64,000 bases of DNA, from positions 1,026,189 through 1,090,188 of the forward strand of contig OZ253667.1 of assembly GCA_965263235.1 (NCBI GenBank), read 5' to 3'. The DNA comes from Pseudomonadales bacterium (GTDB lineage: Bacteria > Pseudomonadota > Gammaproteobacteria > Pseudomonadales > UBA7434). The notes under the pieces are model-generated. The model worked only from the letters and a program-made list of their open reading frames with translations. It had not been told where the DNA came from and searched no databases. Positions within the stretch are counted from its first letter, which is position 1, and the number at the start of each line of letters is the position of its first letter. The position numbers were made by a program, and so were the translations under genes. Below are positions 101-47,054 of the stretch, in pieces.

Positions 101-2081
<1,981 letters not shown>

Positions 2082-2183
2082 CTTTTTAGCAGCCAAACAC
2101 ACTATGTTTAGGCGCTTAAATTTGGTTTCTCGCTCGCGTTAACGTCGAGAGGGCGCGCATAGTAGGTCTTGAGGAATGTGACG

Positions 2184-2651
2184 TCAAGCGCCGCAGCACT
2201 TCTTGTACTTTTTACCGCTTCCGCAGCTGCATGGGTCGTTTCTGCCAACTCTGCCGGGTGCTATGGCCTGGCCATCACAGAAGAACCATTGGTCATGTGC
2301 TTTTTTAAAGTGTGAGCGTTCGGAATGCTTGGTTTGGCGTCCTTCGCTATCTTCGTAAACAGCAGTGAACTCGACCGTGCCAACCCGATCGTTGCGTTTG
2401 CCGGCCTTACCGCCAAGAATTTCTAGAGAAATCCATCGAGAGCTTTCCGCCCATTTTTTAGTGGACTCTTCGTCGAAGTCATCACGGCTGTCGGGATGGA
2501 GTGAATCGTGTAGAAATTCGGTGTTGGCCGTGACGTAGGCGCTGTAGCGAGCGCGCATTAGTGCTTCGGCTGTTTCAGCCAGGGTATTGCCTTCAATTAT
2601 AGGTTGGCAGCATTGTTCAAACTCGGCGCCTGAACCGCAGTGGCAGTTCAT
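2184..2651 (-). CDS. ychJ: YchJ/UPF0225 family SEC-C motif protein
   Basis: MNCHCGSG at the N-terminus and [20 protein letters not shown] at the C-terminus match the E. coli YchJ architecture. I moved the start to the internal ATG at 2651, because the upstream part of the tracked ORF looks non-coding. Confidence 0.85.
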
Positions 2652-4096: not shown

Positions 4097-6298
4097 ATGG
4101 CGCTTACCGAAGAGTTAAAAGGAAATATTCAGCGATATTATAGGGAGTGGTTAGAAAGCAATGACTGTAAACCTCGGCGACCGCAGAGGGAAATGATTGC
4201 TCATATCGCTCGATGTTTGGCCGCAGTAGAAACTGATGAAGAAGGTTTACGTCTGGACTCCTTTCAAAATCAGTTATGCATTGTTCAAGCCGGTACGGGT
4301 ACGGGTAAAACGCTTGCGTATTCGATTGCTTCGATTGTTATCGCGCAGGCGCTTGATAAAAAAGTCGTTCTCTCAACGGCAACAGTTGCCCTGCAAGAGC
4401 AGCTACTTAATAAAGATCTTCCAAACCTGCTTGAATCAACTTCGTTAGATTTTTCTCTGGCGATTGCGAAAGGGCGTTCGCGCTACTTGTGTTTGAGTAA
4501 GCTAAGCTTGCGTTTAAAAGAATCAGAGGGGCTTGCTCCGCCGCAAGGTTTATTCCCTGACGAGCAGGGTGTGTTAAGTCAAAGCGCCAAAAAATCCATC
4601 TCGATCCTTTCGAAAGCAGTTGGATCAGGTGAGGCTTGTGGAGAGTTTGATTCGCTACCGGATGATTTTGATCACGAAAACTGGCATCTGGTCGCTGCTG
4701 ATAGAAACAGTTGTAGTGGTAAGCAGTGCTCCAATTATCGGGATTGCTATCTTTTTAACGCGAGAGACGAAGTTCGTAAGTCGGACGTGATTGTGGCAAA
4801 TCACGATTTGGTGCTGGCGGACTTAACTTTGGGTGGGGGGAACGTTTTACCGCCGCCGGAGGAGACGATTTACGTGTTTGATGAAGGGCATCATTTACCC
4901 GAGAAATCACGTAACCATTTAAGTGTTTCGTTTGGTCTACAGGCGCAGAGAAAGCAACTAGGGAATAGTCAAAAAATTTTCGCACACTTGCGAGATGTTA
5001 CTGGTATTTCTGCTGATCTTTTGTCTCGAGAAAAAACGATCAATCAACTGGACGAAACCCTTAAAACGATCTTGGCAGCAGTAGACGGCGTGGTCGGTAA
5101 AATAGTTGATGGTGGCGGCGGGTTGGATGGGATCGATTCTGGTGCCGAAGGTGTGTACCGGTTTGTGAACGGAATAGTTGAAGAAGATTTGCGGCAGCAT
5201 TTTGCAGACCTTCAAACCTGCTTTTTGGAAAAACATCGCCAGTTGAGTGCGATTGGTTCAGGTTTGGCGGATGCGATAAAGGATACAGGTGACGGTGATA
5301 CTGTTGTGCACGAGCGCAGTATTGCGAAGGGAAAATCTAATTCGAAAAAAGGCATTACGACAAGGGAGCGCCTGGAAGCTGCGCTTTCGTTAGTGAGTCA
5401 TTCACTCGCTCAGGTAGACAATGCGCTTGCTGTTTGTGATAGCTATGCTAATTGCAGTAAAGATGACCCGTACGCACGCTGGCTTTTAGAGAGCGACACT
5501 TCGGCCACCGCGAGAGCGGATGTTAGTGTTTTTTCAGTGCCGCTTTCTACTGCGAGTATTTTAAAAAGAATTCTGTGGAAGCGCTGTTTTTCGGCGGTAG
5601 TTACTTCAGCGACGCTCGCGCCGGCCGGAAACTTCAAGCATTTTTTTAGCAAGTTGGGTCATGGAGATGAGGTCCGCTCAATTCAGTTGTTAGGTGAGTT
5701 TAATTACGCTGATGCTGTTTTTTACGTTCCGCAAATGCAAAGCTCTGCGACTAATGCAATACTGCATACTGAAGAGCTTATCGAGTTAATTCCGAATTTA
5801 GTAGACAGTACAGGCGGGAGTCTGGTTTTGTTTTCATCGCGAAAGCAAATGATGGATGTTGCGCAAGAATTAGAAGCTGCGTTAGATGTTTTGGTTCAGG
5901 GAGAGCGCTCAAAACAGAAGTTGCTTGATCTTCACCGAGAGCGTGTGGATAAAGGGGGGCGAAGTGTGCTCTTTGGCCTGGCTAGTTTTGCCGAGGGCTT
6001 AGATTTGCCTGGTGACTATTGCAAAGAAGTTGTTATTGCGAAGCTTCCATTTTCTGTGCCGGATGGCCCTGTCGATAAAGCAATGGCAGAGTGGGTCGAG
6101 TCCAGGGGCGGGAACCCGTTTTATGATATTAGTTTACCAGATGCAGCCATACGCTTGATGCAGTCAAGCGGGAGGCTTTTGCGCAAAGATTCTGATGAGG
6201 GTCGTATAACGCTATTAGATAGGCGGATAGTGGCAAAAAGCTATGGAAAGCAGCTGCTCGCGGCACTCCCTCCATACCGGCTCGAAGTGGGGCGTTAA
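4097..6298 (+). CDS. dinG: ATP-dependent DNA helicase, DinG family
   Basis: It has Walker A AGTGTGKT and a DEGHH (DEAH-type) box. Cys residues between the motifs are consistent with an Fe-S domain. The C-terminal helicase motifs include SFAEGLD. The ORF is 733 aa. Confidence 0.85.
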   Translation: MALTEELKGNIQRYYREWLESNDCKPRRPQREMIAHIARCLAAVETDEEGLRLDSFQNQLCIVQAGTGTGKTLAYSIASIVIAQALDKKVVLSTATVALQEQLLNKDLPNLLESTSLDFSLAIAKGRSRYLCLSKLSLRLKESEGLAPPQGLFPDEQGVLSQSAKKSISILSKAVGSGEACGEFDSLPDDFDHENWHLVAADRNSCSGKQCSNYRDCYLFNARDEVRKSDVIVANHDLVLADLTLGGGNVLPPPEETIYVFDEGHHLPEKSRNHLSVSFGLQAQRKQLGNSQKIFAHLRDVTGISADLLSREKTINQLDETLKTILAAVDGVVGKIVDGGGGLDGIDSGAEGVYRFVNGIVEEDLRQHFADLQTCFLEKHRQLSAIGSGLADAIKDTGDGDTVVHERSIAKGKSNSKKGITTRERLEAALSLVSHSLAQVDNALAVCDSYANCSKDDPYARWLLESDTSATARADVSVFSVPLSTASILKRILWKRCFSAVVTSATLAPAGNFKHFFSKLGHGDEVRSIQLLGEFNYADAVFYVPQMQSSATNAILHTEELIELIPNLVDSTGGSLVLFSSRKQMMDVAQELEAALDVLVQGERSKQKLLDLHRERVDKGGRSVLFGLASFAEGLDLPGDYCKEVVIAKLPFSVPDGPVDKAMAEWVESRGGNPFYDISLPDAAIRLMQSSGRLLRKDSDEGRITLLDRRIVAKSYGKQLLAALPPYRLEVGR

Positions 6299-36969: not shown

Positions 36970-37269
36970 ATGGCACTAACCAAAGCAGAGATGGCCGAGC
37001 GTTTGTTTGAAGAGCTTGGTCTCAATAAAAGAGAAGCAAAAGAAATCGTCGAATTGTTTTTTGAAGAGATCCGAATGGCGCTCGAATCAAACGAGCACGT
37101 AAAGCTATCCGGTTTTGGCAATTTCGATTTGCGAGACAAAAAACAACGCCCAGGTAGAAACCCAAAAACGGGAGAAGAGATTCCTATTTCTGCTCGCCGC
37201 GTGGTAACATTCAAGCCCGGTCAAAAACTCAAGCAACAAGTCGAAACCTATGCTGGAACCGAGCAATAA
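36970..37269 (+). CDS. ihfA: Integration host factor alpha
   Basis: [49 protein letters not shown]. Confidence 0.95.
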
Positions 37270-37612
37270 CGAAGAACTTCCGGCCATCCCCGGAAAGCGC
37301 TATTTCACGATTGGTGAAGTCAGCGACCTGTGCGCAGTAAAGCCCCACGTCCTACGTTACTGGGAACAAGAATTTCCACAGTTAAAACCGGTAAAGCGTC
37401 GCGGTAACCGCCGCTATTACCAGCGCCAGGACGTTATCATGATTCGTCAAATCCGAAGCCTGCTATACGATCAGGGTTACACCATTGGCGGTGCTCGCCA
37501 GCAAATGACCGGCGAAAAAGCCAAAGACGACGGTGCGCAAACACAGCAGCTCGTCCGCCAGATGATTGTAGAGCTTGAAGAAGTTCTCGATGTTTTAAGA
37601 GCACCTGTGTGA
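37250..37612 (+). CDS. MerR family transcriptional regulator
   Basis: [25 protein letters not shown] is a MerR-type HTH. The gene overlaps the ihfA 3' end. Confidence 0.85.
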
Positions 37613-37676
37613 GCTCCGATTAAGCCTTAAAGCACACAACTTCCAGTAGTATCCAAAGACACTTTGCATTAGAATC

Positions 37677-37715
37677 GCGCTCCCGTTTAAAACTCGGGAG
37701 CGTTTTGGTTTTGGT
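37677..37715 (+). terminator. Rho-independent terminator
   Basis: CGCTCCCGtttaaaactCGGGAGCGTTTTGGTTTTGG. Confidence 0.75.
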
Positions 37716-37747
37716 GTTTTAAAACACTGACAATCCAAATGTTTTTC

Positions 37748-38050
37748 GGGATGTAGCGTTCTCTTTGTACCCTTCACACAGACAGGCAGTAGCGCACTAA
37801 GTAGTGCGCCTAGAAAAGAAAGAGATATTAAGATTATTAGTTAGATAGTTTAGAGTGGGATGTAGCGCTCACTTTGTAGAGAGCGGTAGCGCACTAAGTG
37901 GTGCGCCTAGAAAAGAAAGAGATATTAAGATTATTAGTTAGATAGTTTAGAGTGGGATGTAGCGCTCACTTTGTAGAGAGCGGTAGCGCACTAAGTGGTG
38001 CGCCTAGAAAAGAAAGAGATATTAAGATTATTAGTTAGATAGTTTAGAAC
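37748..38050 (+). repeat. Three tandem units (109, 97, 97 bp), each starting with a degenerate copy of the tRNA-Pro 5' part
   Basis: The units start GGGATGTAGCG at 37748, 37857 and 37954. Units 2 and 3 are identical. Each contains GGTAGCGCAC and an AT-rich spacer. The true tRNA follows at 38050. Confidence 0.9.
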
Positions 38051-38126
38051 GGGATGTAGCGCAGTCTGGTAGCGCACCACACTGGGGGTGTGGTGGTCGT
38101 CGGTTCAAATCCGGCCATCCCGACCA
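38050..38126 (+). tRNA. tRNA-Pro (anticodon GGG)
   Basis: CGGGATGTAGCGCAGTCTGGTAGCGCACCACACTGGGGGTGTGGTGGTCGTCGGTTCAAATCCGGCCATCCCGACCA. All four stems pair, and the anticodon loop is CTGGGGG. Confidence 0.85.
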
Positions 38127-38154
38127 ATTTATACTTATAAATCAAAATGTTAAA

Positions 38155-38180
38155 AGCCTCGCAAATGCGGGCTTTTTATT
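38155..38180 (+). terminator. Terminator after tRNA-Pro
   Basis: AGCCTCGCaaatGCGGGCTTTTTATTT (one bulged base). Confidence 0.6.
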
Positions 38181-38217
38181 TAGCGGTGATTTAAGTCCAT
38201 ATTAAGTCCAAATTGCG

Positions 38218-39219
38218 CTAAGTGTGACTAAGTTGATCAATGGGGCTGGTCACACCTTTGCCGCCCCGGTTGACTACATGAGTGTAGATTTCGGTGGTGC
38301 TGATGTCGCTGTGTCCTAACAACTCTTGAATGGTGCGCAAATCATAGCCCGACTCCAATAGGTGAGTCGCAAAGCTATGCCTGAAACTGTGAATGCGTGG
38401 TAGCTTGTGAATCTTGGCTTCTTGCACTGCGCGTCTTACCTGGCGGCTCAGTGTGGTCGGGTGCATATGGTGGCGGCGCTTCACGCCACTGCGAGGGTCT
38501 TTGCCGATACTGCTTGAGGGAAATAGAAACTGCCAGGCCGTCTCGTACGGCGCTCGAGGGCTTTTGCGTGCGAGTGCATCAGGCAGGCAAACTTCGCCAT
38601 ACCCGTCGCGAATATCTTGGTCGTGGAGCAGCTTAACGCGCGCTACTTGCGCTTTCAATTCGGGGATTAATTTTTGCGGCAGCATGGTCGCGCGGTCCTT
38701 ATTTCCTTTGCCATTGCGGACGATAATATTATTGGAGCCAAAATCGACATCCTTGATGCGCAGTGAGAGAAGCTCTGCGAGCCTCAAGCCAGTGCCGTAA
38801 AGTAATTCGACCTGTAGCCGGTAGACGCCATTAAGGCCGTTGATAATAGCCGCTATCTCATCCCGACTATATATCACGGGAAGCCGCTTGGGCGCTCTCG
38901 CGCCTTGATAGCCAAGTTCACCCACCTCAATTCCTAAAAAGCGCTTGTACACGTATACGAGCGCATTGAGTGCGGTGCGTTGTGTATTGACCGAGCAAAA
39001 GCGTTGATTGGATAGATAACTTAAAAAATTTTCGATTTCAGTGGGGCCTAATGATTTGGGGTGTTGCTTACCGTGAAAGTTAATAAAGCGGCGGATCCAG
39101 TGAATATAGGTTTGCTCGGTGCGGTACGCGAGCCCCTTTTGCCGCATGTGCAGGCGTAGCTGATCGAGAAAGCGTGGCGATTGCGGTGGAATGGTGGTGC
39201 GGATTTTTATTTGTTCCAT
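38218..39219 (-). CDS. intI: Integron integrase
   Basis: It is a tyrosine recombinase with the R..HxxR..Y boxes (TGLRLAELLSLR, HSFRHSFATHLL, TEIYTHV). It also has the IntI-specific insertion LPDALARKSPRAPYETAWQFLFPSS. The start was set at MEQIKIR. Confidence 0.9.
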   Translation of the reverse strand: MEQIKIRTTIPPQSPRFLDQLRLHMRQKGLAYRTEQTYIHWIRRFINFHGKQHPKSLGPTEIENFLSYLSNQRFCSVNTQRTALNALVYVYKRFLGIEVGELGYQGARAPKRLPVIYSRDEIAAIINGLNGVYRLQVELLYGTGLRLAELLSLRIKDVDFGSNNIIVRNGKGNKDRATMLPQKLIPELKAQVARVKLLHDQDIRDGYGEVCLPDALARKSPRAPYETAWQFLFPSSSIGKDPRSGVKRRHHMHPTTLSRQVRRAVQEAKIHKLPRIHSFRHSFATHLLESGYDLRTIQELLGHSDISTTEIYTHVVNRGGKGVTSPIDQLSHT

Positions 39220-39479
39220 GGGATGCACTCGTATACCTGTATGTATATACAGTATCAATTTTAAGTGCACTCTGTCAAACTTCAGGTGATCAATGGATAG
39301 GTGTTCACTATTTCCAGGGTTGCAGGGCTAAGGTATTGAAAAATAAGATGGTGGTATCGTGTACAACAGCCATTGATTTTCCCCGCCTGGCAGATTCCTG
39401 CTCGCTTTAACCTTTTTTGATATCAATCATTCATTGCTTAACCTACTGAACAATAGACTCTTTTTTTGATGTCTAAGTA

Positions 39480-39545
39480 TGTTTAAATTTGGATACACAG
39501 CATGGTGGATATGAGCCACTTGCTATTGAATAAACTGTTAGCCAT
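39480..39545 (+). other. attI region with the recombination point in GTTAGCC (G39537/T39538)
   Basis: GTTAGCCAT (39537-39545) is the exact reverse complement of ATGGCTAAC (40036-44), which ends the first cassette. The left extent of attI is not determined. Confidence 0.6.
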
Positions 39546-39560
39546 ATTAAGGATACAATA

Positions 39561-40043
39561 ATGAATGAAGTTAGAATCCCTTATAAACCAAACAAAATTC
39601 TATTTATATTAGCAATCGGGTTTTTTGGTGCCTGTGCCGGATTTATGGGAAATATTGCAATAACAAACGATAGAGGTTTGGTGCTTAACCGAATTTTTGA
39701 ATTCTCCACACAAGGAGCTTCTATTTTTTACTGGGTTATTACAGTAATAGCTCTAGCATTTGTTTTAGTTGGAATTATTGCCCTTATAAAAAGCTTTACC
39801 TCAAAAAGAGAGATAATTATCTCCGATACTTCTATCACGTCCCCTAAAAGTGGTTTTAGCAAACTAGATATTACCGTCAATTTTTCAGACGTTACGGATG
39901 TCACGATACAAACTGTACAAAAAACCAAAATACTTAACATCGACCACTTAGATGGTAGACTCTCAATTCCAAATAGCATGTTGCCAAATAAACAAGCTTT
40001 TGAAGAGTTAGTTTCACATATTCAAGTTAAATTAAATGGCTAA
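39561..40043 (+). CDS. Cassette 1: small membrane protein (two TM helices + soluble C-terminal domain)
   Basis: The hydrophobic segments are ILFILAIGFFGACAGFMGNIAI and IFYWVITVIALAFVLVGIIALI. The ORF is 160 aa. Confidence 0.65.
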   Translation: MNEVRIPYKPNKILFILAIGFFGACAGFMGNIAITNDRGLVLNRIFEFSTQGASIFYWVITVIALAFVLVGIIALIKSFTSKREIIISDTSITSPKSGFSKLDITVNFSDVTDVTIQTVQKTKILNIDHLDGRLSIPNSMLPNKQAFEELVSHIQVKLNG

Positions 40044-40057
40044 CAAGTGACTATGGT
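40036..40057 (+). other. 5' (R''/L'') part of the attC of cassette 1, interrupted by an IS
   Basis: ATGGCTAACAAG has the same R''-AAG organisation as the other attC sites (GCATAACAAG, CCTAGCAAG, GCTAGCAAG). Confidence 0.55.
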
Positions 40058-40072
40058 GTCAAACTCTAATTA

Positions 40073-40459
<387 letters not shown>

Positions 40460-40481
40460 TTAACGAAGAGGAGATCTCAAC

Positions 40482-40748
40482 ATGAAGAAGAAACGATTTA
40501 CCGAAGAACAGATTATTGGTGCGCTGAAGGCACACGAAGCTGGCGAGAAGGTCGCTGATATTTGTCGACGAATCGGCGTGGCGCAGGGTACGTTCTACAA
40601 TTGGCGAGCCAAATTTGGTGGGATGGAAGTGAACGAAGCTAGGCGGCTGCGTGAATTGGAATCAGAGAACACCAAGCTCAAAAAGCTGTTAGCCGATAAG
40701 CTCCTTGAAGTTGAAGCGATGAAGGATGTGTTGTCAAAAAAGTGGTGA
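40482..40748 (+). CDS. IS3-family transposase OrfA (HTH)
   Basis: MKKKRFTEEQIIGALKAHEAG..GTFYNWRAKFGG, with a leucine-zipper-like tail. It ends just after A AAA AAG (40736-40742). Confidence 0.9.
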   Translation: MKKKRFTEEQIIGALKAHEAGEKVADICRRIGVAQGTFYNWRAKFGGMEVNEARRLRELESENTKLKKLLADKLLEVEAMKDVLSKKW

Positions 40749-41560
40749 AACCTGCGAGCAAGAAGTTGGCGATCTCGCATATGAAGACAACACATCGTGT
40801 GAGTGAACGAACAGCTTGTCAGCTCGTAGGTTTGAGCCGAAGCGGTTATCGCTATCAAGCACAACCCAAAGGTGATGAATCACTGACGAAAAGGCTCAGT
40901 GAGCTGGCCACGCAATATCCTCGCTACGGCTACCTGATGTTGTACAGTCTACTCAAACAGGAAGGGTTAGTCGTTAACAAGAAACGCACCTATCGCTTGT
41001 ATACAGCAATGGGCTTGCAGGTTCGCACGAAGAAACGTAAGAAGCTCACAAGACCACGACAACCGCTAGCAGTCCCGATTGGCAAAGATATTCGTTGGTC
41101 GATGGACTTTGTCTCCGATCAATTGAGTAATGGCAGACGCTTTCGAGTGCTCAATGTGGTCGATGACCATACACGCGAGCTGGTCGGCCAGCTCACAGCG
41201 TTTTCGATATCCGGCCAGCAAGTCGCGGGCTTCTTAAATCAACTGTTAGCAACCCGTAACAAGCCCGATCAAGTGATCTGCGATAACGGCACGGAGTTTA
41301 CGAGTAAGGCGATGTTCTTTTGGCAGAAGGATGCAGGCATAAAGCTTGGCTTTATTCAGCCAGGCAAACCGACACAGAATGCGTTTGTAGAAAGTTTAAA
41401 TGGCAAGTTCCGAAACGAATGTTTAAACCAGCATTGGTTCCGCAGCATTGATGAAGCGAGACACATCATTAACGACTGGCGAGAGCACTACAATCATAAA
41501 AGGCCGCATAGCGCATTGAACTATATGACGCCAGTGGCCTTTGCGAATCGAGCAGCATAG
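40742..41560 (+). CDS. IS3-family transposase OrfB (DDE), expressed by a -1 frameshift from OrfA
   Basis: It lies in the -1 frame relative to orfA. The rve-type core is WSMDFV..VVDDHTRE..DNGTEFTS..ESLNGKFRNECL. Confidence 0.9.
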   Translation: MVKPASKKLAISHMKTTHRVSERTACQLVGLSRSGYRYQAQPKGDESLTKRLSELATQYPRYGYLMLYSLLKQEGLVVNKKRTYRLYTAMGLQVRTKKRKKLTRPRQPLAVPIGKDIRWSMDFVSDQLSNGRRFRVLNVVDDHTRELVGQLTAFSISGQQVAGFLNQLLATRNKPDQVICDNGTEFTSKAMFFWQKDAGIKLGFIQPGKPTQNAFVESLNGKFRNECLNQHWFRSIDEARHIINDWREHYNHKRPHSALNYMTPVAFANRAA

Positions 41561-41607
41561 AATGAAAATCTCATCCAAGCTGTGGTGTTAATCGTGGGGA
41601 AAGGTCA

Positions 41608-42218
41608 GCAAGGACGTTGCCCACGCCTTTAGCGCTTAATAGCAGATCACGCTTTTGTCGCCACTCAGCGACACTGTTAACCAATTTGTCGAGTTGTTTA
41701 TCGATGGTGAGCAGTTCTTTTTTGATGGCTTTGAGAATGTTTTGAATGGGGTTGTGCACAGCTTTTGGCATGCGTTTTAAACGATTCTTTTGCATGGTGC
41801 TCATTTCGAGGCATTGACTGCGCACGACGAGCAAATCGCTAATCGCTCTTAATTTCTCGGGTTTTATTGAGGAAAGCCTGGGCTTCATCGTCTCGCCATA
41901 GTGAGCGATGTCCTGCGCATCGAGCTTGTCTGTTTTTGCCATGCGGCCTGCTGATTTAGCAAAGTTGCGCACGTTGCCTGGATTACAGATGACGATGGGC
42001 AGCCCCGCTTTGTGAGCGGCGATGACGAAGTCGAGTTCTAATCGTCCGGTGGACTCGATCAATACACGAGTGGGTTTGAGAGGTTGAAGTTGTTTAACGG
42101 CGTCTTTGATGCCGTCTTTATCATTGGAGGCACTGAAAAACTGGCCAGTGGGTCTCACGTAAATATCGAGTTGTTTTGTGCTGGTGTCGATACCGACATT
42201 GATCTCTTGCGTATTCAT
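41608..42218 (-). pseudogene. IS110-family transposase, N-terminal fragment
   Basis: MNTQEINVGIDTSTKQLDIYV..VLIESTGRLE.. matches the DEDD N-terminal domain. It is truncated by the IS3 insertion. Confidence 0.85.
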
Positions 42219-42489
42219 GGGATAAGCTATCTCCGCCTTGCTATTCGGGCTCGAGGCCCACATGACTATTCGAGTTATGCCTGGTGAGTGTTTGTCACGT
42301 TCACACTAGCGGGTTTAATACACCTGGCCAGCATCGAACTATGACAAACAAGGCCTTGGGTGGCCGCCCAAGGTGGGCCTCAATTTACCCGTTAGTGGAA
42401 AGGATTAAAATAATGAATATAGAGAGAATTGAACCATACAAGGTCATCAAGCCGGACAGTTTTTCCGTTGCTTCTTTTGTGTTTACCCG

Positions 42490-42545
42490 CTACGCTAGCA
42501 CAAAAACGCAACTACAAAACTGCCGCTTATAACGGCGTTAGCTTT
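42490..42545 (+). other. attC 3' part with R' GTTAGCT preceding cassette 42538-43952 (left limit unclear)
   Basis: GTTAGCTTT (42537-45) is complementary to AAAGCTAGC (43879-87) at the end of the following cassette. Confidence 0.55.
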
Positions 42546-43952
42546 CAAAATAATGGATTGACCATCAATGTCTGAACAAGAAATTGAATACGAAGAAGAG
42601 GACTGGGCTGACGAGCCAGTTGATCCGCAGCAACTGGAAGAAGCTCAAAATGAACTTAGAGCACGTTGTGATGCGGCGGGAATAACTGTAGAAGAAACGG
42701 AAGGGATGGAAGAAGGCGACACAGCCTTGGAATTGTCATTTCCATGCGGGAGAAACAAAAGAACACACATCCTTTGGGATTACGATGATATTAAGAGAAT
42801 ATTAGCCGTACCTTTTGAAAAATATACATTTATTGATGGATATAGGGCTATTTGCTCTTACTCAGATAACACCATCGAGGCGCAGATAAGGCCGATGGGT
42901 CCTTTTAGTCCTCGCTTGGCCATTCGTCGACTTTTTAGCGATAGATTTGATGAAGATGATTTACGAGCAGAAAACTACAGCATCGATTTGACTCCAGATA
43001 AAGGCGTAGATGGTCCACAAGTCTCTGTTGGCCCTTCAACTCAAGATTTTCGGGCAATAAACCGCGGACCATCTCTCGGTAATCTCAGTTTAAAACTAGT
43101 GAATACTGGTCTATCACATCATGATCAATCTCGCTCTTTGCTGGAAAAAATATCCAATTCATTGTTCTTTCAAATTGAGCTGCTCGCAGGACTCCCGCTC
43201 GGATTGTTCAGGCAAAGACGGCACCCAAGGCCTATTCGCAGAAAAAATCAGAGGGCATCGATAGAAGACCTGCAATACCCAAAAAATGAATACGATGAAG
43301 CGCCAATCTCACTGTATTGGTATGGCATCAGCGCCATGGGAATGCCCCTCCTACAATTTCTCGCTTTTTACCAAGTGATCGAGTTCTATTTCCCGACCTA
43401 TTTTCAAGCTGAAGCACGACGGAAAATTCGAGCAATACTAAAAAACCCAACATTTCGAAACGATAGAGATGCCGACCTAGGCAAGATACTAAGCGCAATA
43501 CAACTCGGCAAGTCAGGCAGTTTAGGTGATGAAAGGTCGCAATTGCGGGCCACAATAGCGGAATGTGTAGATCCTGATTCCTTAAGGTCATTCTTTTCGG
43601 ATACGGAGGAGAGAACAGGTTTCTTTTCATCAAAAACCAAGGGGATAACAGATCACAAGATTCCGCTTGCTAATCCCAATGTCGACCTTAGGAACGATGT
43701 TGCTGATAGGATTTACGACATTAGGTGCAAGATCGTACATACCAAATCTGATAGCAGAAATGGAGAAATCGAGCTTCTTCTACCATTCTCAAAAGAGGCG
43801 GAACAGCTGTATCACGATATAGAACTAGTGCAATATATCGCGCAGCAAGTACTCATATCAGCAAGTGCACCACTGTAAAAAGCTAGCAAGTACATTAAAT
43901 ACGCTCCCTTTGGTCGCCGGACCTCGCTACCGCTCGGCCGTTTATGTAAGCG
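42538..43952 (+). mobile_element. Integron gene cassette (one ORF)
   Basis: It is bounded by G/TTAGCTTT and by an attC ending G/TTAGGTGC. The start and the R'' end are complementary (8 of 9). Confidence 0.75.
42568..43878 (+). CDS. Cassette protein, 436 aa, acidic N-terminus; the C-terminal region carries a HEPN-like Rx4H motif
   Basis: DRIYDIRCKIVHTK (R-x4-H) lies in a predicted helical C-terminal domain. No other motif was recognised. Confidence 0.6.
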   Translation: MSEQEIEYEEEDWADEPVDPQQLEEAQNELRARCDAAGITVEETEGMEEGDTALELSFPCGRNKRTHILWDYDDIKRILAVPFEKYTFIDGYRAICSYSDNTIEAQIRPMGPFSPRLAIRRLFSDRFDEDDLRAENYSIDLTPDKGVDGPQVSVGPSTQDFRAINRGPSLGNLSLKLVNTGLSHHDQSRSLLEKISNSLFFQIELLAGLPLGLFRQRRHPRPIRRKNQRASIEDLQYPKNEYDEAPISLYWYGISAMGMPLLQFLAFYQVIEFYFPTYFQAEARRKIRAILKNPTFRNDRDADLGKILSAIQLGKSGSLGDERSQLRATIAECVDPDSLRSFFSDTEERTGFFSSKTKGITDHKIPLANPNVDLRNDVADRIYDIRCKIVHTKSDSRNGEIELLLPFSKEAEQLYHDIELVQYIAQQVLISASAPL

Positions 43953-43960
43953 TTAGGTGC
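43879..43960 (+). other. attC site
   Basis: R'' AAAGCTAGC-AAG; L'' TACATTAAATACG pairs with L' CCGTTTATGTA; R' GTTAGGTGC. Confidence 0.75.
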
Positions 43961-43979
43961 AACTCACTCGAATCTCATC

Positions 43980-45272
43980 ATGAAAGTTACTATCTACACC
44001 CTGTGGAGGTCATTCGCCATTTTTACGGTACTCCTGTTCATCGTCATGGGGTATTGCGCTGTTCTTGTGGCTAAACCGTTTATCAGTGCAAAAATTAAAA
44101 ACATCTATATATCTAGGAGCTTAAAGGCTTTGGTAACGTTCCTTGGCCCTCCTTACATCAAGATAATTCAGATACTGAGTACAAGGGCAGATATATTCTC
44201 TGATGAATTTATAAGAATATGTGGCCAATTGAGAGTAAATGTACCTGGCCCTTCTTTTTCAAGAATAAAGAGTAGCATACCTAGTTCGCTTGCTGATGCT
44301 ATACGTACTAAGCAAATTAGCATCGAAGAAGAGCCAATTGCTGGAGGGAGTGTTGCGGTAGTCTATAAGGGCATCGATATAGGCACCTCGAATCCTTTAG
44401 CAATCAAAATCATCCGACCAAACGCAAAACTACTTATTACAACTGATATTAAGATTCTAGTTTTTTTCTCTTTCTATTTGAGGCTAATACCGTGGCTCAA
44501 GCCGATTCCCATGCAGTCCGCGTTGAGGTTCGTTGGGAATGCATTGATTGAGCAAACAAATTTAGAGCTAGAGCGCAGAAATCTAAATAGATTTACGGAG
44601 CTTACGACCGAGAACAATAAAATCGTGTTTCCTATTGCTTGGCCAGACTATTCAAATGAAAACACATTGGTAATGGGTTACTTAAGTAACTTTAACGAAG
44701 AGTGGCTATACAATATGACTGCTGAACAAGGTTCAGTCATTTCTGACTCCTTAGTTCATATGCTATTTAATATGGTCTTTGTCGAGGGGTTTATACATTC
44801 AGATTTACACCCAGGTAATATTGGCGTAGATCAACGGGGATTCATAAGAATAGTAGATACAGGTTTGGTTGCACAACTAAACTCAATGGATAGGAAGCAG
44901 TTTGCAAGATTCTTTTTTGGGATGGTAAGCAACAATGGACTAATGAGCGCGAAAGTTTTAAATGAAACAGCAGAAAAATCGCTAAAAATATTTGATAAAC
45001 AAATGTTCGATATAGAAGTTTCGAGTATCATTGCCAAGTATTCTGGCTTGAGTGCTGCGGATTATGATGTTGCCCTTTTCGTGTCAGAAATATTTCAAGT
45101 GCAAAGAAAACATGGGTTAGTGGCTACACCAACATTTCTTACAGTAATTCTTGCTTTTGTGTCTCTTGAGGGAATAATAAAAATAATTTGCCCAGCTTAT
45201 GATTTCCAAGAAAAGGCGAAACAGTATATTTTTAGGTATTCCCAAGCAGTTGGGCTATTTGAAGCAACGTAG
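43980..45272 (+). CDS. ABC1/UbiB (AarF) family atypical protein kinase with an N-terminal TM segment
   Basis: FLGPPYIKIIQILSTRADIFSDEFI..LRVNVP..EEEPIAGGSVAVVYKG..AIKIIRP..FIHSDLHPGNIGV is the classic ABC1 domain pattern. Confidence 0.8.
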   Translation: MKVTIYTLWRSFAIFTVLLFIVMGYCAVLVAKPFISAKIKNIYISRSLKALVTFLGPPYIKIIQILSTRADIFSDEFIRICGQLRVNVPGPSFSRIKSSIPSSLADAIRTKQISIEEEPIAGGSVAVVYKGIDIGTSNPLAIKIIRPNAKLLITTDIKILVFFSFYLRLIPWLKPIPMQSALRFVGNALIEQTNLELERRNLNRFTELTTENNKIVFPIAWPDYSNENTLVMGYLSNFNEEWLYNMTAEQGSVISDSLVHMLFNMVFVEGFIHSDLHPGNIGVDQRGFIRIVDTGLVAQLNSMDRKQFARFFFGMVSNNGLMSAKVLNETAEKSLKIFDKQMFDIEVSSIIAKYSGLSAADYDVALFVSEIFQVQRKHGLVATPTFLTVILAFVSLEGIIKIICPAYDFQEKAKQYIFRYSQAVGLFEAT

Positions 45273-45313
45273 GTTCTTCTCCAGATCCTACCAATATTTC
45301 TCAGGAGTTTAAA

Positions 45314-46105
45314 ATGGCAAAGTTTGAAGACTCGATTTTTTTCAATGAGCTTAATCGGTTTGTGGGTTCTGGAGGAGAACTAGTATTAAAGAAATCACAG
45401 AAAGAAGATGGAGATACCAAAATCGATGTCGGAGATATTCTAATTGGTATCGGTGTGACCCACCTTGTAGAAAGTCTTTCTAGGCCGCCAGGGTTGGATT
45501 CCTTTCGTTCTTTCGACGTAAATTCCTTGGCATATGACAGAAAAATGGCTGCGCGCGCTTTTAGAGTAGTCGCGAAAGAGCAAACTGACGAAGGGTTTGA
45601 TTTTCGATTCGAGCCATTGTCTCCAAACGAATATAGCGAAGCGTTGTCTGAGGTATCCGAGGGCACCGTTAATATTGACCCAAAGACTATACCAGACGGT
45701 ACAGTAATCCTGAGCTTTACATCAGAAAAACCTGAATACACGCTCAAATCAAATGAATCTTCACCGAGAGCTAATTGGGAAGCACTAGCAAAGGGGGAGC
45801 GTCATTGGAATGTAGGAATTGGCTCTGAAGATGATTTTTGGGCAGCGAGTTTCCCGTCAGATGAAATGGAGTTTCTGAAAGAGTTTTCGGCAGCAGCAAA
45901 ATTGGGTCGAATTCGATTTGGCTTATCAATGCTCAAAGGAAGTGTTGGAGCGATAAAACTAGAAAAAGTTGAGACTGAACATCCGACTGGAAGGATTACA
46001 AAACATGATTTTTGCTTAAATGGCAACGCTGCTGGTACGAAGAACTTAGATTCTCCATTTCCTATAGGACTGCGAACCGAAATCACTTTTTTTCCAGTCG
46101 AATAA
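45314..46105 (+). CDS. Hypothetical protein (263 aa), second gene of the two-gene cassette
   Basis: The ORF has an AGGAG Shine-Dalgarno site 8 nt upstream. No recognisable motif was found. Confidence 0.6.
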   Translation: MAKFEDSIFFNELNRFVGSGGELVLKKSQKEDGDTKIDVGDILIGIGVTHLVESLSRPPGLDSFRSFDVNSLAYDRKMAARAFRVVAKEQTDEGFDFRFEPLSPNEYSEALSEVSEGTVNIDPKTIPDGTVILSFTSEKPEYTLKSNESSPRANWEALAKGERHWNVGIGSEDDFWAASFPSDEMEFLKEFSAAAKLGRIRFGLSMLKGSVGAIKLEKVETEHPTGRITKHDFCLNGNAAGTKNLDSPFPIGLRTEITFFPVE

Positions 46106-46108
46106 ATT

Positions 46109-46206
46109 GCACCTAGCAAGGCAAATGCACTCGGACTGCCAAAAGCTGCGCCGCTCGTTCCTCGCTCTGCAGCTTTTGGCAGCCGGTGATTTGCGGCGTT
46201 ATGCAT
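46109..46206 (+). other. attC site
   Basis: R'' GCACCTAGC-AAG; L'' GCAAATGC pairs with L' GATTTGC; the internal inverted repeat is CTGCCAAAAGCTGC/GCAGCTTTTGGCAG; R' GTTATGCAT. Confidence 0.8.
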
Positions 46207-46675
46207 CAGGAAAAATATGAGTATTAGCCCAATTTTGGAGAAAGACTTCTACCACGACGGTAGAGGCCCAGAGCTTCAAAAGGTACAGTGGAAATCGAAT
46301 GGGGTAGTACTTGTTGGTTTTGAGTATTTCAATCCGGACGATGAATACACTCCGGAAAATTTAAAACATTTGGCTCTCGACAGTGTTGAGGCATACAGCA
46401 TGTCCTCGGAGGAAGTACACGGTAATATTCTGGCAGGAGGTGACAATAAGGCAGCTATCTTTGAAGTCAAAAACTCAGAGTGGCTAGCCTCATTTAATCA
46501 ATATCACCTATCAGAGTGTAGGCACTACCAAATCATGTTTTACGATGAAATCTATGATGTAATCTGCAAGAGCATTAAAGCAGGTTCAGGTCGGCTAAAT
46601 GCATAACAAGGCGCTGTTATCGCAGCCTTCGGCTGCTGGGACGCACCACTGCGTGGCGCGCCCTAAAGCTTGGCG
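46199..46675 (+). mobile_element. Integron gene cassette (one ORF)
   Basis: GTTATGCAT (46198-46206; the cassette begins at T46199) is the perfect complement of ATGCATAAC (46599-46607). Confidence 0.8.
46217..46606 (+). CDS. Cassette hypothetical protein (129 aa)
   Basis: The ORF fills the cassette, and its stop codon lies inside R''. Confidence 0.6.
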   Translation: MSISPILEKDFYHDGRGPELQKVQWKSNGVVLVGFEYFNPDDEYTPENLKHLALDSVEAYSMSSEEVHGNILAGGDNKAAIFEVKNSEWLASFNQYHLSECRHYQIMFYDEIYDVICKSIKAGSGRLNA

Positions 46676-46684
46676 TTAATCCGC
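46599..46684 (+). other. attC site (last recognisable one)
   Basis: R'' ATGCATAAC-AAG, a GC-rich imperfect palindrome (GCAGCCTTCGGCTGC) and R' GTTAATCCGC. Confidence 0.65.
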
Positions 46685-46979
46685 TTTTTCTGCTTTTCTT
46701 TTTTTGATTTATTACTTCGCTTTCTGGCCTTAAAATTTTCTCCGTACAGTTATTGACAGAACTCCAGGTGGGCGCTTCCGCCTGGAGGTGCTGTCGCTTG
46801 CGCTCGGCCGATTCCGACGCCATCGGATGATTCGTTGCAAACAACGTCTTTACTTTATCCTTGAGTTTTACCGTCCACTCTATTGGTCGGGATATAACAG
46901 CTTGGGTTTTAAACCAAATCCCTTTAATGGCCTTTATCGCTTCGCCGTATAGATTGCGTTTTTCTCTTTCCAGAAACAT
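46617..46979 (-). CDS. Doubtful ORF / possible gene remnant at the distal end of the cassette array
   Basis: The 120-aa ORF has its last ~20 codons running through the attC at 46599-46684. No motif was recognised. Confidence 0.25.
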   Translation of the reverse strand: MFLEREKRNLYGEAIKAIKGIWFKTQAVISRPIEWTVKLKDKVKTLFATNHPMASESAERKRQHLQAEAPTWSSVNNCTEKILRPESEVINQKKKSRKSGLTPSFRARHAVVRPSSRRLR

Positions 46980-47054
46980 AGGGGTTTCTGGGACAGTTTA
47001 CTGAATTCATTGTGATAGAATTAAACAGCTATACTGTCTTCACAAAATTCAAAT

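Follow-up and report, generated by a model that had tools for sequence, protein, structure and literature searches.

The closest described analogue of the repeats reported here is the trnF(GAA) pseudogene array of plastids, which lies in the trnL-trnF spacer of Brassicaceae, Solanaceae and Asteraceae and consists of one to seven or more partial copies 5' of the functional gene (PMC3786074). These copies are built of tRNA domain fragments, arose once at the base of a clade and vary in number between close taxa; the genome that holds them is of bacterial type, and promoters of the sigma-70 type are nearby (PMC3786074). In a 64,000-nucleotide (nt) stretch of a Pseudomonadales genome (contig OZ253667.1; hereafter the window, whose positions are used as coordinates), two tRNA genes, tRNA-Pro(GGG) and the initiator tRNA-Met(CAT) (tRNA-fMet), are each preceded by tandem partial copies of their own 5' end. 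We read these units, with a probability of roughly 0.6, as pseudogenised, truncated and remodelled tRNA copies that belong to the transcribed 5' leader and stand between promoter and sole functional gene. Tandem 5' copies in the same orientation, a variable copy number and confinement to a clade were all found for the window arrays, as in plastid trnF, so that the statement in a preliminary description of this DNA that no equivalent had been described is too strong (PMC3786074). However, the trnF copies keep mainly the anticodon domain, usually without the acceptor strand, whereas the units here keep the 5' acceptor strand and the D region and have a different hairpin in place of the anticodon arm. 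They are also longer (97-124 bp versus 32-73 bp), belong to tRNA-Pro and tRNA-fMet, and come from free-living bacteria that represent at least two phyla. When the literature was searched for 5'-partial, hairpin-remodelled tRNA copies in bacterial tRNA leaders, none were found, the only cases being plastid and eukaryotic.

Among bacteria, the tyrT locus of Escherichia coli is said, in literature of about 1980, to carry a 178-bp unit about three times after tRNA-Tyr, each with the last ~19 nt of the tRNA, and the arrangement was reportedly attributed to unequal recombination. It is alike in that a repeat boundary falls inside a bacterial tRNA gene and that the unit consists of a tRNA fragment and a spacer, but it is the mirror image: a 3' fragment is repeated downstream, in the trailer, whereas here a 5' fragment is repeated upstream, in the leader. 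Photobacterium and Vibrio are said to possess tRNA-Pro/His clusters in which tandem tRNA-Pro genes stand with tRNA-Pro-like pseudogenes, again in gamma-proteobacteria. Those clusters reportedly hold many full-length functional genes, whereas here there is one functional gene and all upstream copies are truncated and remodelled. A cluster of this kind is presumed to be the state from which the present arrays began.

The Pro array consists of three units placed head to tail, on the plus strand, directly 5' of and in the same orientation as the intact tRNA-Pro(GGG) (38050..38126, +, CCA encoded), which was called by ARAGORN and Rfam (RF00005, 65 bits) and is identical in sequence across all relatives compared. 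The units start at 37748, 37857 and 37954 and the tRNA-Pro body follows from 38051; Tandem Repeats Finder (TRF) reported a tandem repeat at 37789-38062 with a period of 97, 2.8 copies, 98 % matches and a score of 527. With one mismatch or fewer, GGGATGTAGCGC occurs four times in the window (0.23 expected), and the 22-mer GTAGCGCACTAAGTGGTGCGCC occurs three times (0 expected). The repeat call, motif counts and boundaries thus bear out the three partial 5' copies of 109, 97 and 97 bp that had first been described here.

Five parts can be distinguished in a Pro unit. The first, GGGATGTAGCG(C/T), corresponds to tRNA positions 2-13 (positions 2-12 are common to all units) and is followed by 16-29 nt foreign to the tRNA, by GTAGCGCAC (tRNA positions 19-27), by the complement GTGCGC, which closes a GCGCAC-loop-GTGCGC hairpin (hairpin 2), and by an AT-rich spacer of ~47 nt. 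Hairpin 2 and the AT-rich spacer take the place of the anticodon arm in each unit, as the preliminary description had it. The foreign nucleotides had been called an expanded D-loop; extra nucleotides are indeed present, but fold prediction makes this region a hairpin in its own right (hairpin 1). We also considered an origin of hairpin 1 by slippage, as a triplication of a GTAGCGC direct repeat, and rejected it, as the likeness is loose and by eye only and misfits the units of a Sphingobacteriales genome described below (L003; L-numbers denote the comparison loci and contigs of the analysis).

Unit 1 (37748..37856, +, 109 bp) is a divergent edge copy that differs from unit 2 by an indel and substitutions. 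It carries GGGATGTAGCGT and an additional insertion of 12 nt, and has its hairpin 2 at 37792-37809 as well as the AT-rich spacer. Unit 2 (37857..37953, +, 97 bp) contains tRNA positions 2-12, hairpin 1 (37863-37888), hairpin 2 (37889-37906), one arm of which is tRNA positions 22-27, and the AT-rich spacer; its predicted fold is -24 kcal/mol (z = -2.2). Unit 3 (37954..38050, +, 97 bp) ends on the base that is tRNA position 1. Units 2 and 3, taken at first as identical, agree at 95 of 97 positions and differ in their last two bases (GT versus AC).

None of the Pro units is called as a tRNA gene by ARAGORN, nor by Rfam at the gathering threshold or at E-values up to 10. When they were aligned with the tRNA, only positions 2-12 and 19-27 aligned (11 + 9 nt), and the T-arm and the 3' acceptor strand were not seen. 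No curated RNA family (Rfam 15, E-value ≤10) matched the window units. A CRISPR (clustered regularly interspaced short palindromic repeat) array was ruled out since whole 97-bp units repeat, spacers included. The terminator scan listed no terminator-like site inside the Pro units, in which hairpin 2 precedes CUAGAAAAG; when units were checked for an intrinsic terminator or attenuator, only the first unit of the related locus L067 had hairpin 1 followed by UGGUUUUUU.

The same architecture at the unrelated initiator tRNA was confirmed, with two units 5' of the tRNA and a serine recombinase at its 3' end. Here tRNA-fMet (1753..1829, -; ARAGORN, Rfam) is preceded by unit 2 (1830..1953, -, 124 bp) and unit 1 (1954..2076, -, 123 bp); the locus spans 1753-2085 (-), and TRF reported a tandem repeat at 1795-2085 (97 % matches). 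Each unit holds tRNA positions 1-34 with an anticodon loop enlarged by ~12 nt, then positions 38-46 (ACCCGAAGG in unit 2), for which a new complement provides the pairing partner, and a spacer, which in unit 2 ends in AAAGTTTTGAT.

Relatives were then compared for copy number, a comparison among strains that had been proposed from the outset, and the number was found to vary between near-identical genomes. The same-species locus L001 (flanks 98.4 % identical) has a single Pro unit, the orthologue of window unit 1, against three in the window, and the same-species contigs L070 and L071 (flanks 97.6 % identical) have two and one fMet units, respectively, against two in the window. Among more distant lineages, three Pro units are present in L067 (the contig stops just past the tRNA) and four in L069, both with flanking genes ~75 % identical to those of the window, and one fMet unit is present in L077 (flanks ~70 % identical). 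No Pro units occur in the sister lineages L054 and L002 or in the sister lineage L057-L063, where tRNA-Pro is 100 % identical, and no 5' units were found at a third tRNA of these relatives, tRNA-Val(GAC). As arrays exist in ~75 %-identity lineages and vary among near-identical genomes, the sequence comparison indicates that they are old and lineage-specific, with a copy number (1-4) that changes quickly.

In this lineage, assemblies break systematically at tRNA-Pro and tRNA-fMet because of the arrays. Short-read contigs of relatives (L065, L066, L068, L072-L076 and L078-L081) end inside the first or second tRNA-like copy, and nine of those at the fMet locus reach only 25-35 nt into the first, which a repeat would be expected to cause. 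Contigs that break exactly at the repeats could hint that the array itself is a collapsed or mis-expanded repeat, but arrays with differing units are spanned in independent assemblies, including contigs from the L001, L069, L070 and L071 samples, units 1 and 2 differ by more than one kind of change, and the layout recurs in ~35 unrelated contigs. On the strength of the independent contigs we exclude an assembly artefact and attach hardly any weight to it.

The preliminary description had also inferred a recurrent mechanism at tRNA loci flanked by recombinases. The layout does recur, and does so independently (at two window tRNAs, at 32 metagenome loci and in L003), but no link with recombinases was found. 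At the Pro locus the neighbour is an integron integrase gene, intI (38218..39270, -; TIGR02249, 417 bits; Pfam), which is convergent with tRNA-Pro. It does not start 92 nt after the tRNA, as first described: it lies on the minus strand and its 3' end faces the tRNA at a distance of 91 nt. At the fMet locus a large serine recombinase open reading frame (ORF) (101..1849, +; profile match) converges on the 3' end of the tRNA, at the edge of a strain-specific inserted element. Both recombinases are part of strain-specific DNA inserted 3' of the tRNAs, the usual integration side of tRNA genes, and the repeats are on the 5' side. The same-species contigs L001, L070 and L071 (flanks 97.6-98.4 % identical) carry arrays without intI or a serine recombinase, no recombinase was found near the fMet array in L070 and L071, and none was found near the arrays of L067, L069 (3 kb downstream covered) and L077 within the available contig sequence. 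The repeats are therefore unconnected with the neighbouring integron integrase and serine recombinase.

It is accordingly very improbable, only slightly less so than an artefact, that the units are scars or attachment sites of intI, of the serine recombinase or of elements integrating into the 5' half of tRNAs. Such an origin could be suspected since tRNA genes are classic integration sites, recombinase genes adjoin both window tRNAs, and direct repeats made by integrases (att) are also partial tRNA copies beside a tRNA and near recombinases, with genuine cases at these very tRNAs in relatives. Those genuine scars, however, copy the 3' end of the tRNA, lie downstream and flank inserted DNA, whereas the units copy the 5' end, stand in tandem upstream and are found without any recombinase (L001, L069, L070, L071, L077). 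In addition, no distal tRNA fragment or 3' fragment is present elsewhere in the window, and the attI/attC sites at which intI acts are on the opposite side of its gene. An att-site duplication was thus ruled out by the wrong tRNA end, the wrong side and the lack of dependence on a recombinase. Identity with integron attI/attC was rejected on location, as the attI side of intI is at ~39270-39560 and the Pro units lie beyond its 3' end with the tRNA between. Recombination scars, one of the candidates first put forward, remain apt in the sense of homologous or unequal recombination and not in the site-specific sense.

The layout is not confined to the two window loci and occurs much more widely than the preliminary description had assumed. 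A scan of genome contigs with the pattern GGGATGTAGCGYN{10,40}GTAGCGCAC gave 51 loci, of which ~45 were coding-sequence coincidences in high-GC genomes; the lineage of the window was not matched, and six Bacteroidota loci were informative. In the Sphingobacteriales metagenome-assembled genome (MAG) L003, dnaA and tRNA-Ser are followed by three 67-bp units and an intact tRNA-Pro(TGG); within a unit, GGGATGTAGCGT and AGTAGCGCAC are each followed by a hairpin, and an A-run comes last. When metagenomes were scanned for two tRNA-Pro 5' ends 67-97 nt apart, 99 loci were obtained. About 35 were unrelated repeats and about 20 were true tandem tRNA-Pro gene pairs of the same spacing (92-96 bp), while 32 had one to six pseudo-units directly 5' of an intact tRNA-Pro (period 67-96, tRNA-identical prefix 12-27 nt). 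Most of the 32 belong to one unit family; the sole locus of it checked for taxonomy, L164, has Bacteroidota neighbours, with Mucilaginibacter, Dyadobacter and Spirosoma as nearest named relatives.

The unit of this Bacteroidota family consists of tRNA positions 1-27, a hairpin UCCCGAC-loop-GUCGGGA, AGGUCG (tRNA positions 44-49) and an AT-rich spacer, and matches no Rfam family at an E-value of 0.01 or lower. In 16 distinct units the hairpin was paired in 112 of 112 cells, with two compensatory pairs, and every one-sided change led to a G.U pair. Read from the sequences, this pattern bears the mark of selection acting on RNA of the tRNA strand. The hairpin equals a permuted tRNA-Pro acceptor stem, in which the 3' strand and discriminator come first and the 5' strand follows; the permuted family comprises loci within L083-L180 (e.g. 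L112 1245-1650 and L164 3081-3471), the hairpin extends into the 3' trailer CUC in L133 and L138, and a UCCCG/CGGGA stem stands at the D-loop position in L121 and L047. Across all fetched loci, none of 21 bystander tRNAs of other isotypes had an upstream copy of its own 5' end.

Several further tRNA-Pro-related elements were seen in these scans. A full-length tRNA-Pro(CGG)-like gene with a D-loop hairpin AUCCCGAU-agcg-AUCGGGAC and a T-loop hairpin, uncalled by ARAGORN and Rfam, is present in L036 (2400-2441, -) and L047 (2365-2406, -), which come from Phnomibacter sp. MR NZ_CP123968 and a Chitinophagaceae MAG. In L046 (1131-1226, -) a second tRNA-Pro(GGG), 230 nt beyond the normal one, has a 26-nt D-loop hairpin, no CCA and a score of 30.2 bits, barely above the Rfam tRNA threshold. 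In L052 (4850-5710) a ~160-bp duplicate of the tRNA-Pro promoter region and the first 12 nt of the tRNA is followed by a hairpin and CGGTAGCGCAC and precedes a small GIY-YIG-like ORF, with the real promoter and tRNA 660 bp downstream; it seems that a protein gene there has come to be driven by a re-used tRNA promoter and 5' fragment. In the dnaA-tRNA-Ser-units-tRNA-Pro locus L138 (499-867, -), three weak tRNA-like matches (~35 bits, period 144) downstream of tRNA-Pro may be a second kind of tRNA-derived repeat.

Comparison of units within and between lineages points to concerted evolution. Pro units are nearly identical within a genome, whereas, from one lineage to another, the identity of the AT-rich spacers is at shuffle level (0.51-0.59; shuffles 0.51-0.54). 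Divergence is always greatest in the unit farthest upstream, which has substitutions in its tRNA-derived block (GGAATG in L067, TGGATGTAGTG in L069, GCGAGG..GATAGC in L070), an edge effect expected from unequal crossing-over. This suggests that inner units owe their tRNA-identical block to homogenisation with the last copy, which is under selection, and not to selection on each unit. Unit length (96-98 bp) is conserved in all three gamma-proteobacterial lineages, and the non-tRNA part of the two-hairpin module is 72-81 % identical across them, above all 1000 shuffles. The fMet units are co-linear with the tRNA over positions 1-34 and 38-46 (p ~0.02 versus shuffles), and there is a weak resemblance between their spacer and the leader that precedes the array (p ~0.01), as simple tandem duplication predicts.

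Where transcription would start bears on whether the units are leader or promoters. A sigma-70 promoter-like TTGACG-N17-TACTAT with a GC-rich discriminator (2159..2187, -) overlaps the end of ychJ and precedes the fMet array as a whole. The form TTGACG-N17-TAyTAT is kept upstream of the array in four fMet lineages (L070/L071, L077 and L072 share the boxes). Ten Bacteroidota loci have the canonical -7 box TAnnTTTG, in the form TATATTTG, at a distance of 8-22 nt upstream of their first unit. Because recognisable promoters precede the whole array, the units are probably transcribed leader. A tandem promoter array with a promoter in each AT-rich spacer, like rRNA P1/P2, corresponds to the multi-promoter leader among the candidates first proposed and is improbable. 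The spacers are AT-rich and abut the tRNA-like start, a TTAAGA-N17-TAGAGT match (8/12) occurs at two internal junctions of the window Pro array, and Bacteroidota spacers have boxes of the form TATATTGT or TATATTAA. But those boxes are degenerate and the only ones in the internal spacers, the 8/12 sites would begin transcription inside a unit and are absent from L001, L067 and L069, and spacer sequence is unconserved between lineages. No conserved -35/-10 pair was found in each unit, a standard scan gave no plus-strand promoter in 37550-38300, and the well-formed, conserved promoters are those upstream of the first unit.

The reading of the units as remodelled tRNA copies in a leader would explain these observations as follows. 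A tandem duplication of the tRNA with a short flank is taken as the origin, after which the upstream copy would have lost its function; the ~20 true tandem tRNA-Pro pairs of the same spacing represent the presumed starting state. Copy number would shift quickly, and units within a genome would be homogenised, by unequal crossing-over of a unit with another unit or with the 5' end of the tRNA. This would account for how rapidly copy numbers change and how alike the units of a genome are, for the divergence of the edge unit and for the perfection of the 5' block, which would stay tRNA-identical through selection on the last copy. At least one unit would persist since clean removal needs recombination within 12-34 nt of homology, and a larger deletion would take out the promoter. 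The tRNA-derived segments would be locked in local hairpins, one arm being tRNA and the other a new complement. Selection would keep these hairpins at the RNA level, most likely so that the leader folds alone and spares the folding and RNase P processing of the real tRNA. Minimum free energy models of the full precursor pair unit 1 with the 3' end of the true tRNA, which indicates misfolding potential only and is no proof.

Several results weigh against this reading. The insulating role of the leader hairpins is what we infer, and single-unit fold z-scores span -3.2 to +1.1, too inconsistent to be kept as evidence of structure. No convincing promoter was found for the Pro array, either in the spacers or upstream. 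The Pro units showed no significant homology to the 3' two-thirds of the tRNA (p 0.44-0.61), nor did the Pro spacer resemble the sequence upstream of unit 1 significantly, so that for Pro an origin by whole-gene duplication would follow by analogy only. Hairpin 1 (CUCUUUGUAGAG), which is foreign to the tRNA, is conserved over ~75 %-identity lineages; as it is absent from the tRNA, homogenisation against the tRNA cannot explain this, which points to an unnamed function. Finally, persistence in a ~3 Mb genome over such divergence exceeds what a purely neutral remnant predicts.

The conservation of hairpin 1 favours a rival reading, in which the units are a positively selected, cis-acting leader module (a mimic of the tRNA 5' half with hairpins) that would tune how the tRNA downstream matures, how stable it is or how much of it is made. 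Assistance to RNase P with pyrimidine-start tRNAs is one conceivable role, and the supply of a small RNA or sponge another, with copy number as the dial. We hold this to be possible, though doubtful. It would fit the conservation of the two-hairpin module where spacers are randomised, the constant unit length across gamma lineages, and the Bacteroidota hairpin, perfectly paired, with compensatory and G.U changes and the form of a permuted acceptor stem. Arrays are also retained across ~75 %-identity lineages at two loci, and both window array tRNAs start with C1 or U1, while the bystander tRNAs lack upstream copies. But sister lineages with an identical tRNA manage without units, copy number runs from one to three within the species with nothing else changed, and edge units decay in the tRNA-derived block. 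The inconsistent fold z-scores, the missing Rfam match, the lack of an identified partner and the tiny census of other tRNA types also weigh against it. A broader proposal is equally tentative: that tandem tRNA 5' copies whose anticodon or D arm is 'closed' are a widespread, selected and undescribed class of cis-acting pre-tRNA leaders for tRNA-Pro and the initiator tRNA. Such a class may control the maturation or dosage of pyrimidine-start tRNAs or yield a small RNA and, if it is real, the window arrays may be its gamma-proteobacterial version and the Bacteroidota UCCCGAC/GUCGGGA units another.

The surroundings of the arrays were also described. Upstream of the Pro array, the gene order pheT-ihfA-merR-tRNA-Pro is kept in all relatives (the identity of ihfA was confirmed by a profile match), and a MerR-family gene (37250..37612, +; ORF, Pfam MerR domains in homologues) is the last of this conserved block. 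It is followed by a terminator-like hairpin, GCGCTCCCG-N9-CGGGAGCG then TTTTGGTTTT (37677..37712, +), read from the sequence and unlisted by the terminator scan as its loop exceeds 8 nt, which separates the upstream operon from the Pro array. The segment that comprises TTTGCATTAGAATC, this hairpin (GCGC-UCCCG...CGGGA-GCG) and a U-run (window 37663-37712; L069 4469-4533) is 85 % conserved, the genes being only ~75 % conserved, and holds a good -10-like TAGAAT (TAAAAT in L067). It may be the merR terminator alone, or also a promoter or attenuator for the tRNA array. Downstream, the scan placed an intrinsic terminator 3' of tRNA-Pro (38158..38181, +).

The ~8.9-kb intI segment (38218-46985) is strain-specific, since L001 re-joins the window only at ~46985. 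It also holds a 160-aa cassette-like ORF without a Pfam match and an insertion sequence of the IS3 family (40482-41560) inside an IS110-family transposase gene (40073-40429, 41571-42263). In L001, tRNA-Pro is followed by a small 3'-end att scar and then a methyltransferase/DndB segment in place of the intI segment. In relatives, elements of ~150-200 bp were seen at the 3' ends of tRNA-Pro, tRNA-fMet and tRNA-Val (L001 3058-3256; L069 ~5090-5400; L070 5900-6110 and 8451-8816). Each closes with the final 17-20 nt of the tRNA, directly repeated, and a copy of its terminator, several share GGTTCGACAAAATGCG..GCATTTTG, and the one at tRNA-Val is itself tandem (197 bp x 1.9); from their sequence they look like miniature remnants of integrative elements. 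The serine recombinase ORF at tRNA-fMet has no stop until past the antisense of the tRNA, its last ~30 codons lying on the opposite strand of the tRNA gene, which suggests that the attachment site of the inserted element lies within the end of the recombinase gene and the 3' end of tRNA-fMet.

The arrays are ordinary in mechanism and unexpectedly widespread, with a hint of constraint, and a false lead has been removed, as neither the integron integrase nor the serine recombinase could be tied to the repeats. They break short-read assemblies and can mislead tRNA annotation and the calling of island boundaries. They illustrate the way in which a tandem duplicate of a tRNA can be caught between promoter and essential gene and then last a long time as remodelled leader RNA. 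If they are purely structural, they are fast-evolving markers, like variable number tandem repeats, at tRNA loci. If the hairpin modules are functional, they would define a leader element of tRNA-Pro and tRNA-fMet that is both new and phylogenetically broad, and pre-tRNA folding and the handling of C1/U1 tRNAs by RNase P would be directly testable.

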